A stretch of 64,000 nt of DNA from Alphaproteobacteria bacterium bin98 (GTDB taxonomy: Bacteria; Pseudomonadota; Alphaproteobacteria; Bin98), in contig MPNG01000001.1 in NCBI GenBank assembly GCA_002238905.1, forward strand, positions 12,599 through 76,598. Reading direction: 5' to 3'. A program made the position numbers and the translations under genes. Numbering within the stretch: position 1 is the first letter of the stretch; every line of letters begins with the position of its first letter. The notes under the pieces are model-generated. The model ran no database searches. It saw nothing but the letters and a program-made list of their open reading frames with translations, and was not told where the DNA came from. Below, one piece after another: positions 36,864 to 38,510 of the stretch.

Positions 36864-38510
36864 ATGATAGCATTAATACTCTTATTATTTTCAATCTATT
36901 TAGACGTTAATGGAGCATATCTCCCCCCCTTTGAGACGATTAATAGAGAAAGAAAATCCACAGTTACATCCTGTGCGTGGAGAGAATCAATATTACCACC
37001 CATACATTTTAACAGGGCTGTATGCACGGGAAAGTCTAAAGTTAGCTTTTATGGTGATCAAAGAGACAGAAGCACTTCTGATAGAGAGGAAGCAAGAGCT
37101 CAATTACAACCTGAATCCAGAGATGCAGAAAAATTTACACCTACCCCTTCCGATAATGAACTCAAACAAGAAATTGGGAAATCCAAAATCATAGCTAAAG
37201 CTCAAATCACACTCACTCAACAGATGAAGATATTAAAATCCACAAGTGAAGTCAAAGACAGTGTCCAATCCTACAGTGAGGATGTTCTAGCAGAAATTTT
37301 GCAATATATCTCCAGAGTCAAATGTATACCGCTATTTCCAGACAATTTCTCTGATGAAGAAGGAGAAATAAGTATAACTACAGACAGATCTGGCACCAGA
37401 GCCAGAGCCAGAGCCAGAGCCAGAGCCAGAGCTATAGAGAGAGACAGATCAGTTCCAACCCAAGCTAAACTCAGACTCAGACTCAGAGCCAGAGCCAGAG
37501 CTAAAACCATAGAGGGCGACAGCACTTCACCTCCAGCCAAACTCAAAGCCGCTACATTGGATGGTATGACTATGAAAGACCTCTCTTCATCAGATCTTGA
37601 GATAGATAAGAAAGCAGTCCCAGCTACACTCATAGCCAAAACTAGGACTAAAATCATAAAGAGCGACAGCACTTCATCTCCAGCCCCAGCCAAACGCAGA
37701 ACCAGACACAAACTCAGACCCAGGATCAAAGCCCATTGCCAAGATAGTTCCTTGGATGAGCTAAGAGAAAAAAACTCAACCTCAATCCCAACCACACTCA
37801 GGCTCAAAGCCTCTACAGTGGATGGTGTGACTATGCAGGACCTCTCTGCATCAGATCCTGAGAGCGATCAGAAAGAAGTTTTTTTTCCAGCAATTGTCAA
37901 ACATTTGAGTTTAGAAGAGCAATCTATGGCGCCGTGCAAGTACAAATATAGGATTTTATGTGAGCTCTCAGGTGAATGCCATCTTCAACTGAAAGAGATT
38001 CATTTTCAAACCCCTATTTTTTTAATGCAAATGACACAACCAGTAAACAAAATTCTGAAGGAAGCTTGCTGGCAACACTATTCTGAAAAAAGAAGCGATT
38101 TTACTTGGAACCCTGGTCGAGAAGAAAATAAAAATCTAGCACTTGTTATGCAAGAGGCTTTAGATAATAAAGCTACTCTTAATCTATTCAACTTCTTTTA
38201 TTCTTTTCTCCAATTGGAGAGTGATTTTGTTTGGGCATACAAGGGCGCATTGCGTCAGTCTTCTGTTGATAGCATCGTTGAGCATGCTGTACCAGGATTT
38301 ATTGAAATAAAACTAATAAATTCGTACCATCATCTTTTATCATCTTTATACTATTTTTGTAAAGGAAATGAAATGAAAGCGGATCAATCATATCATTTAT
38401 ATTGGAAGACAAGAGATAGAAAAATAAAATATGAAAAAGGAGAGCCAGTATTCTTTAAAGCGTATATTCAGTGTATACGAAAAATATTCCAATCTTCATG
38501 GCGTGTGTAA
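36864..38510 (+). CDS. Large family member (548 aa) with a central low-complexity Arg-Ala / Arg-Leu repeat region
   Basis: It has leader MIALILLLFSIYLDVNGAY. The central part reads TRARARARARARA...LRLRLRARARA and includes a 33-aa duplicated module STSPPAKLKAATLDGMTMKDLSSSDLE / STSIPTTLRLKASTVDGVTMQDLSASDPE. The C-terminus is family-like YHHLLSSLYYFCKGNE. Confidence 0.65.
   Translation: MIALILLLFSIYLDVNGAYLPPFETINRERKSTVTSCAWRESILPPIHFNRAVCTGKSKVSFYGDQRDRSTSDREEARAQLQPESRDAEKFTPTPSDNELKQEIGKSKIIAKAQITLTQQMKILKSTSEVKDSVQSYSEDVLAEILQYISRVKCIPLFPDNFSDEEGEISITTDRSGTRARARARARARAIERDRSVPTQAKLRLRLRARARAKTIEGDSTSPPAKLKAATLDGMTMKDLSSSDLEIDKKAVPATLIAKTRTKIIKSDSTSSPAPAKRRTRHKLRPRIKAHCQDSSLDELREKNSTSIPTTLRLKASTVDGVTMQDLSASDPESDQKEVFFPAIVKHLSLEEQSMAPCKYKYRILCELSGECHLQLKEIHFQTPIFLMQMTQPVNKILKEACWQHYSEKRSDFTWNPGREENKNLALVMQEALDNKATLNLFNFFYSFLQLESDFVWAYKGALRQSSVDSIVEHAVPGFIEIKLINSYHHLLSSLYYFCKGNEMKADQSYHLYWKTRDRKIKYEKGEPVFFKAYIQCIRKIFQSSWRV
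37395..37430 (+). repeat. Hexanucleotide microsatellite (GCCAGA)x6 inside 36864..38510. A related block lies at 37468..37500.
   Basis: gccagagccagagccagagccagagccaga is in frame and encodes (Ala-Arg)n. Confidence 0.8.

Follow-up and report, generated by a model that had tools for sequence, protein, structure and literature searches.

The gene at positions 36864–38510 (+ strand) of a 64,000-nucleotide stretch of the genome of Alphaproteobacteria bacterium bin98 (assembly GCA_002238905.1, contig MPNG01000001.1, positions 12,599 to 76,598; this whole stretch is called the window below) contains a perfect hexanucleotide repeat, which encodes a run of Arg-Ala dipeptides. The number of repeat units differs between public assemblies, where five, six and seven units are found. 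The reading preferred here, to which a probability of about 0.7 is given, is that the repeat is a polymorphic in-frame coding microsatellite, a hot spot of replication slippage located in the spacer of a probably exported, lineage-specific protein. An initial annotation, made from the DNA of the window, had anticipated that the unit number would vary among isolates, and this has been borne out by the public assemblies.

The microsatellite occupies positions 37396–37432 (+), where Tandem Repeats Finder reports a period of 6, 6.2 copies, 100% matches and the consensus CCAGAG over 37 nucleotides. It covers codons 178–190 of a 548-codon open reading frame (ORF) and lies 532 nucleotides downstream of the start codon. 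Its codons are ACC (AGA GCC)x5 AGA GCT ATA, translated as T-(RA)6-I. The earlier description as (GCCAGA)6 is right as to length, but the exact phase contains five complete GCCAGA units preceded by ACCAGA. Two shorter tracts, both also reported by Tandem Repeats Finder, follow downstream: (ACTCAG)3.2 at 37469–37487 (+), read as (CTC AGA)3 or (Leu-Arg)3, and (CAGAGC)3.0 at 37484–37501 (+), encoding R-A-R-A-R-A, a short second copy of the main motif that was also found as DNA repeat family D1. Together they read AAA (CTC AGA)x3 (GCC AGA)x2 GCT AAA, or K-(LR)3-(AR)2-A-K, and the in-frame Arg-Ala and Arg-Leu dipeptide repeats recognized in the initial annotation are indeed present.

The longest period-6 run of the window is 37 nucleotides, while in 200 shuffled sequences the mean was 14 and the maximum 18 nucleotides. 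A count of the perfect simple sequence repeats (SSRs) in the 64 kb gave three hexanucleotide repeats, all of them within this gene, and no other di- to hexanucleotide repeat above the threshold. A scan of genome contigs with the motif GGCACC(AGAGCC)4 missed this organism and matched only nine GC-rich genomes unrelated to it.

The gene is present on GCA_026710745.1 as well as in JGI, ENA and Logan assemblies, and its exact 548-residue product is encoded on 11 public contigs. Six units are found in the window and in loci L001–L004, L015, L016, L021, L022 and L024–L026, five units in L023 (ENA ERZ27241796, the 116-kb contig k141_214430) and seven units in L017 (JGI 3300027328). The dominant number is six, possessed by every spanning locus read except L017 and L023, and the range is 5–7. 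The contig tally fits eleven six-unit, three five-unit and four partial sequences, 18 altogether, from which three five-unit contigs are inferred. All length changes are whole hexamers and keep the frame, as had been predicted; the five- and six-unit products reach the same stop (546 and 548 residues, respectively), and the seven-unit contig remains in frame to its end at codon 288. The variation proposed earlier for both the (AR)n and the (LR)n tracts applies to the main (RA)n tract, but no locus read shows any difference in the (LR)3 and (AR)3 tracts. A dependence of slippage on tract length would predict such constancy of the shorter, three-unit tracts.

The length variants occur on backgrounds that are almost the same. 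The flanks are 99.8–100% identical, and the backgrounds differ from the window by 0–2 substitutions in 6–11 kb. The five-unit locus L023 differs from the window by one single-nucleotide polymorphism (SNP) in 8.6 kb. The seven-unit locus L017 differs from it, over 5.9 kb, by one private SNP (position 36935, E24D) and one 2-bp CT indel at 34113. The same indel is present in L019, an independent assembly, and because this linked change recurs there, the seven-unit allele can be taken to mark a real and distinct haplotype. The length of the five-unit allele would likewise be set by reads that span both flanks, because the k-mer of 141 exceeds the tract; the assembler and this value are deduced from the contig naming convention, the prefix k141_ of L023 being typical of MEGAHIT and of a final k-mer of 141. 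Some Logan contigs end within the tract, but these breaks were not accepted as a sign of polymorphism, since a 37-nucleotide period-6 tract cycles at k=31.

Across the loci about seven mutational events are counted in 11.6 kb, and two of them fall within the 37 nucleotides of the tract, an enrichment of about 125-fold per nucleotide that is rough since the samples are non-independent. A second place where such changes gather is the intergenic segment 34097–34113, downstream of the gene at 34137–34847 (-), which holds the CT indel described above and, in L004 and L016 (sample 3300002147), a 19-nucleotide tandem duplication at 34097. Slippage-type events near 34097–34113 and in the SSR together outnumber the nearby substitutions.

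In the proposed mechanism, slipped-strand mispairing would add or remove one AGA-GCC unit per step. Each step would insert or delete one Arg-Ala pair, with a change of +1 charge per unit, and would preserve the leader, the N-terminal region and the C-terminal module of the protein. The tract cannot act as an on/off switch, because its 6-nucleotide unit preserves the frame. The codon usage is informative about its origin. The main tract is built solely of AGA-GCC and the neighboring tract solely of CTC-AGA, although GCC accounts for 13% of the Ala codons and CTC for 9% of the Leu codons in the window genes. If selection maintained the peptide, its synonymous codons would probably be mixed; a pure array of rare codons is instead typical of recent expansion of a DNA motif by slippage. 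The pure rare codons, and the spacer with 48% GC in a genome with 37% GC, indicate expansion of one motif at the DNA level rather than selection of the peptide. The change in length would then be nearly neutral, a by-product of a region that grows through duplication and slippage, and it has probably a small effect on function.

The protein is predicted to consist of four parts. The ORF list gives 548 codons plus stop at 36864–38510 (+), and the product comprises a leader, a unique N-terminal region, a repeat spacer and a C-terminal family module. The leader, MIALILLLFSIYLDVNGA, at 36864–36917 (+), was delineated by leader comparison and a hydropathy scan; it is a putative cleaved signal peptide and the sole hydrophobic segment. 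The unique N-terminal region (residues 19–175, 36918–37388, +) matched only itself in a phmmer search against the window ORFs, and a database search with residues 1–178 gave no match. The spacer, residues 176–345 (37389–37898, +), was recognized from its composition as a basic low-complexity segment rich in Ser, Thr and Pro. The C-terminal part, residues 346–548 (37899–38507, +), is an all-helical module equal to a whole mature member of a paralogue family of about 180 residues, the conserved core of which was placed by alignment at 38121–38429 (+).

The spacer of about 170 residues has a net charge of +17, contains 26% Ser+Thr+Pro and has a GC content of 48% versus 34–37% in its flanks. In a single-sequence AlphaFold model it is a low-confidence coil, in which the RA and LR tracts are the only helices (pLDDT 55–59). 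A flexible or rod-like linker is a plausible role for it, judging by this model. The initial annotation had proposed a candidate hypervariable linker here; a linker agrees with the basic, Ser/Thr/Pro-rich composition and the predicted coil, and the lengths observed cover a narrow range.

A duplication is present within the spacer. The first copy, residues 199–259 (37458–37640, +), comprises the basic dipeptide tract, a Ser/Thr-rich stretch and LKAATLDGMTMKDLSSSDLEIDKKAV, and was found by local alignment and as DNA repeat families D3 and D4; the second, found by local alignment, comprises residues 280–346 (37701–37901, +) and has its basic tract decayed to TRHKLRPRIKAH. Their local alignment score is 114, as compared with 29 ± 5 for shuffled sequences, and a 77-nucleotide core (37542–37618 versus 37803–37879) is 86% identical at the nucleotide level. 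The duplicated Ser/Thr-rich module of 33 residues reported in the initial annotation is therefore real, but it is larger, with 61–67 residues. Each copy starts with a basic tract, which is a pure dipeptide repeat in the younger copies and TRHKLRPRIKAH in the oldest one, and by its sequence the spacer appears to be a nested set of duplications. Contigs from three assemblies break inside the second copy: L017 ends at 37722, L014 and L027 start at 37751, and the Logan contig L030 starts at 37732. These breaks at 37722–37751 may reflect a further variant or a drop of coverage in the spacer.

The 18-residue hydrophobic leader is of a type common to about 33 window ORFs of at least 80 residues. Its consensus is M-x-(L/I)ILLF(L/F)-x-C-x-H-x-(H/Y)-G-A (the next-to-last pair position is also given as x-x), and the information content of its columns falls from 3.0–3.5 bits to less than 1 bit directly after G-A. 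Such a profile is typical of a targeting signal that is cleaved off, and the protein is probably exported. A second hydrophobic segment and an LPXTG-like motif were both looked for in the protein, where the only hydrophobic 19-mer found is the N-terminal leader; for this reason a soluble exported protein is the best guess for its location. Of the two possibilities raised earlier, a surface or a secreted protein, export is plausible from the shared leader, but no anchor or LPXTG motif in the protein favors the surface over a soluble exported form. The leader is also found on window proteins that do not carry the helical module. Examples of leader-bearing ORFs are 1196–1771 (-), 7585–9717 (-), 16247–17104 (-), 26658–27701 (-), 34137–34817 (-), 57609–61223 (+), 61687–62649 (-) and 62722–63555 (-). 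The approximately 33 shared leaders look like the common export signal of a very large lineage-specific secretome.

The C-terminal 203 residues form a single full-length module that recurs in at least 25 ORFs of the window, in agreement with the designation “family protein” in the initial annotation. These ORFs were recruited by phmmer and jackhmmer from residues 346–548, with o9883 (E-value 1e-8) and o46639 (6e-6) in the first round. The module is characterized by the motifs f-L-x4-FF-x-AF-x2-L and Y-x2-LL-x-S-x3-FC-x6-A-x3-Y-x2-W, of which the target carries YHHLLSSLYYFCKGNEMKADQSYHLYW, and its model is a folded bundle of helices. With both the leader type and the C-terminal module motifs, the protein belongs to the leader-bearing helical-module family. 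A profile of the module gave 39 matches among 1.84 billion cluster representatives, about 37 of them genuine and two repetitive junk; about half of the matches are the window's own ORFs. As nearly all of the others bear the same leader, the family appears restricted to this lineage, and a comparison of the family profile with the PDB gave only insignificant matches, with E-values of 0.07 or worse.

The all-helical module of about 180 residues is locally expanded, for instance in 3596–4234 (-), 4689–5288 (-), 38986–39591 (-) and 43379–47415 (-). Two copies each are found in 9883–11094 (+) and 28976–30109 (-), and P0004, a relative outside the window, has 9 copies in 1581 residues. The family proteins encoded at 56092–56886 (-) and 13444–14388 (-) have database copies, P0013 and P0032, which differ from them by two residues each, and other family members are therefore, as far as these copies indicate, strain-variable too. 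The former also holds a 78-nucleotide tandem repeat of 1.9 copies at 56379–56529. Similar SSRs in other family members, as the initial annotation had envisaged, were looked for in the window and among the 37 database relatives, and none comparable was found. On the strand opposite to the repeats, an antisense ORF of 178 residues with (AL)n and (LS)n runs (37271–37807, -) was rejected as spurious, being without the family domain and open only because the repeats are free of stop codons; the match of a loose leader pattern to its internal-ATG form is likely a false positive.

Database searches indicate that the protein is an orphan outside its lineage. No homologue of the whole protein was found in an index of 5.8 billion proteins, the 8000 scored candidates resulting probably from low-complexity words, and the repeat-free N- and C-terminal parts matched only P0001 in this index, a contig-end fragment of the same gene. 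There was no match to the protein in Pfam, NCBIfam or PDB sequences. Two scans of metagenome contigs, one with the protein and one with the exact 5' flank, gave no match in a collection that does not contain the organism.

The metagenomes of the Logan runs that contain the gene (SRR8092709, SRR8093131 and SRR6214543) come from the sponge Aplysina aerophoba, and the carrier of the gene is an uncultured alphaproteobacterium associated with this sponge. A literature search found no paper on this bacterium. The window has a GC content of 37%, and its genes mark it as bacterial: they include those for RlmH, alanine racemase, the alpha subunit of DNA polymerase III, three MFS transporters and a tRNA-Ile. 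ORFs of at least 150 residues cover about 65% of it, and intergenic gaps of 300–600 bp are frequent. For a bacterium this coverage is low, and it would be in keeping with restriction to a host and with the presence of family fragments and pseudogenes.

The first alternative to near-neutral slippage is that the locus is adaptive and of a contingency type, with a selected unit number setting the length and charge of a polycationic helix that controls, inside the sponge, where an exported effector is targeted, what it binds or how visible it is to immunity, and with the mutability of the tract itself favored. Three alleles in an otherwise almost invariant population would be in line with it, and so would the membership of the protein in a large lineage-specific group of ORFs with the leader, which is what factors of host interaction would be expected to show. 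The basic tract is retained in both copies of the duplication, and the RA and LR tracts form the only helices of the modelled spacer. However, the range is narrow with a single dominant allele, switching of expression is impossible with a 6-nucleotide unit, and the pure rare-codon use resembles a young and unselected expansion. Moreover, this protein is alone in having such a tract, both among the family members of the window and among the 37 relatives in the database, so that tuning by SSRs is not a strategy of the family. This alternative is therefore regarded as unlikely, and its specific form, in which (Arg-Ala)n would be a selected “tuning knob” of a sponge-symbiont effector, with the unit number setting a helix length and charge that govern targeting or binding, is doubtful.

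The second alternative, that the gene is decaying or non-functional, supposes that a family module was fused to unrelated sequence and that the repeats are junk accumulating in the absence of constraint. The low coding density of the window would agree with this, as would the family fragments (such as 44506–44817 and 63626–63925) and truncated copies found in it, and the N-terminal region has no relative anywhere searched. An intact frame is weak evidence of selection, as slippage by 6 nucleotides keeps the frame by construction. On the other hand, a 548-codon open frame in a genome of 37% GC is very unlikely to arise without constraint, the ORF is intact in every spanning assembly, the leader of the protein is canonical for the family, and its C-terminal module is complete and modelled as a folded bundle. 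Decay is accordingly held to be improbable.

An artefact of assembly or sequencing, with six units present everywhere and the five- and seven-unit contigs produced by assembler collapse or expansion or by stutter of the polymerase chain reaction, is most improbable: short-k Logan contigs do break in the tract (L020 ends at 37425, and L028 and L029 start at 37403) and the gene is split over two contigs in sample 3300027328, but the tract of 31–43 nucleotides is far shorter than Illumina reads and than the k of 141 deduced above, the seven-unit allele occurs together with a private SNP and with an indel that a second assembly shares, such stutter hits a minority of reads and not the consensus, and the Logan breaks, which a de Bruijn cycle at k=31 would explain, are uninformative on length.

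Several considerations nevertheless weigh against a nearly neutral slippage site in an exported protein. Near-neutrality is an assumption, and a basic tract (TRHKLRPRIKAH) persists in the second copy of the duplication despite the decay of the repeat there, which hints that the basic character of the tract itself may be maintained. The leader does not have the basic n-region typical of bacterial Sec signals, and export is deduced from its shape and conservation. The protein itself is a predicted product of the gene sequence. The allele calls are assembled consensus sequences from metagenomes and not from isolates. Among the JGI samples, several may have come from the same specimens, as re-assemblies or replicates, and the independent observations are then fewer than the contigs.

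Repeats and duplications are found elsewhere in the window. The leader-bearing ORF 57609–61223 (+) encodes a protein of 1204 residues with a tandem array at 58724–59973, which has a period of 300 nucleotides in 4.2 copies and a sub-period of 105 nucleotides in 4.8 copies; a 33-nucleotide array of 2.7 copies follows at 61102–61191, and the protein has no match in Pfam. Three tandem MFS-transporter paralogues with 46–50% mutual identity and a separate fragment of 72 residues are encoded at 51241–54856 (+) and 57119–57379 (+). The fragment matches the C-terminus of the third copy at 96% identity, suggesting that a segment was duplicated here recently. A perfect 68-nucleotide tandem duplication at 19665–19803 spans the 5' end of the leader-bearing ORF 19192–19725 (-) and the region upstream of it. 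Another perfect tandem duplication, of 19 nucleotides, lies at 30784–30821 in the ORF 30393–31019 (-) and would cause a frameshift relative to the unduplicated state.

Strain-variable in-frame coding microsatellites are well known in bacteria and the mechanism proposed here is not new. The organism, however, is almost clonal, with about one SNP per 8–10 kb between samples, and a length marker with three alleles is one of the few handles on the strains of this symbiont in Aplysina aerophoba. Such a marker could be used to ask whether a sponge holds one or several strains and whether these are inherited or acquired. The locus also flags one member of a very large and unannotated leader-sharing family as fast-evolving in its spacer, and this lineage-restricted family is more unusual, within the window, than the repeat itself. 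If the tuning-knob interpretation were true, no earlier contingency-like locus for length tuning would be on record from a sponge-associated bacterium, and the tract would also be a ready marker for tracking symbiont strains among host individuals.

Exported orphan proteins with Ser/Thr-rich tandem repeats of strain-variable number are found in the Rickettsiales, as exemplified by TRP32, TRP47 and TRP120 of Ehrlichia and MSP1a of Anaplasma marginale. Their repeats are acidic minisatellite units of 19–90 residues, and they are secreted by the type I system through a C-terminal signal. The present protein, also from a host-living alphaproteobacterium, would resemble them in the layout of its duplicated module of 61–67 residues, but it bears an N-terminal leader. 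No homology to TRP proteins or MSP1a was found among the 5.8 billion proteins or in Pfam, NCBIfam and PDB sequences.

Like this locus, the contingency loci of Haemophilus, Neisseria and Helicobacter have an SSR that is a hot spot of mutation, that lies in a gene whose product is exported or interacts with the host, and that occurs in several tract lengths (PMC5084427, PMC4085013, PMC2715451). Those loci switch expression on and off, as their units are not multiples of three or are located in promoters (PMC5084427, PMC4085013, PMC2715451), while the unit described here has 6 nucleotides and is located 532 nucleotides into the ORF, where its variation shifts neither the frame nor the spacing of a promoter.

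The serine-aspartate (SD) repeat region of the staphylococcal Clf-Sdr proteins is likewise a dipeptide spacer of variable length between functional parts of an exported protein (PMC3324548, PMC3794999). It extends over tens to hundreds of residues, is acidic and glycosylated, consists of degenerate 18-nucleotide units and lies between the ligand-binding domain and the LPXTG wall anchor of Gram-positive bacteria (PMC3324548, PMC3794999); its codons are a mixture of synonymous ones (PMC3324548). In contrast, the spacer of this proteobacterium has 5–7 basic Arg-Ala pairs encoded by a pure 6-nucleotide unit and shows no sequence similarity to the SD region. The protein does not belong to the Clf-Sdr family, since its repeats are Arg-Ala and Leu-Arg instead of Ser-Asp, and its C-terminus is a helical module with no LPXTG motif.

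The closest correspondence is with the coding SSRs and variable-number tandem repeats (VNTRs) of prokaryotes, catalogued in PSSRdb (PMC3013739) and reviewed in PMC4700210, for which slipped-strand mispairing is the accepted mechanism. They have in common with the present tract a pure unit of 1–6 nucleotides within an ORF, a copy number that varies between strains, and a unit length divisible by three, which allows changes in length without truncation. All three properties that define a polymorphic coding SSR or VNTR are found here: a pure unit of this size, its location in an ORF with a length that is a multiple of three, and variation by whole units. The present example differs from those catalogued in that it occurs in an orphan gene of a sponge-associated alphaproteobacterium, encodes a run of Arg-Ala pairs, and owes the detection of its polymorphism to metagenome assemblies.

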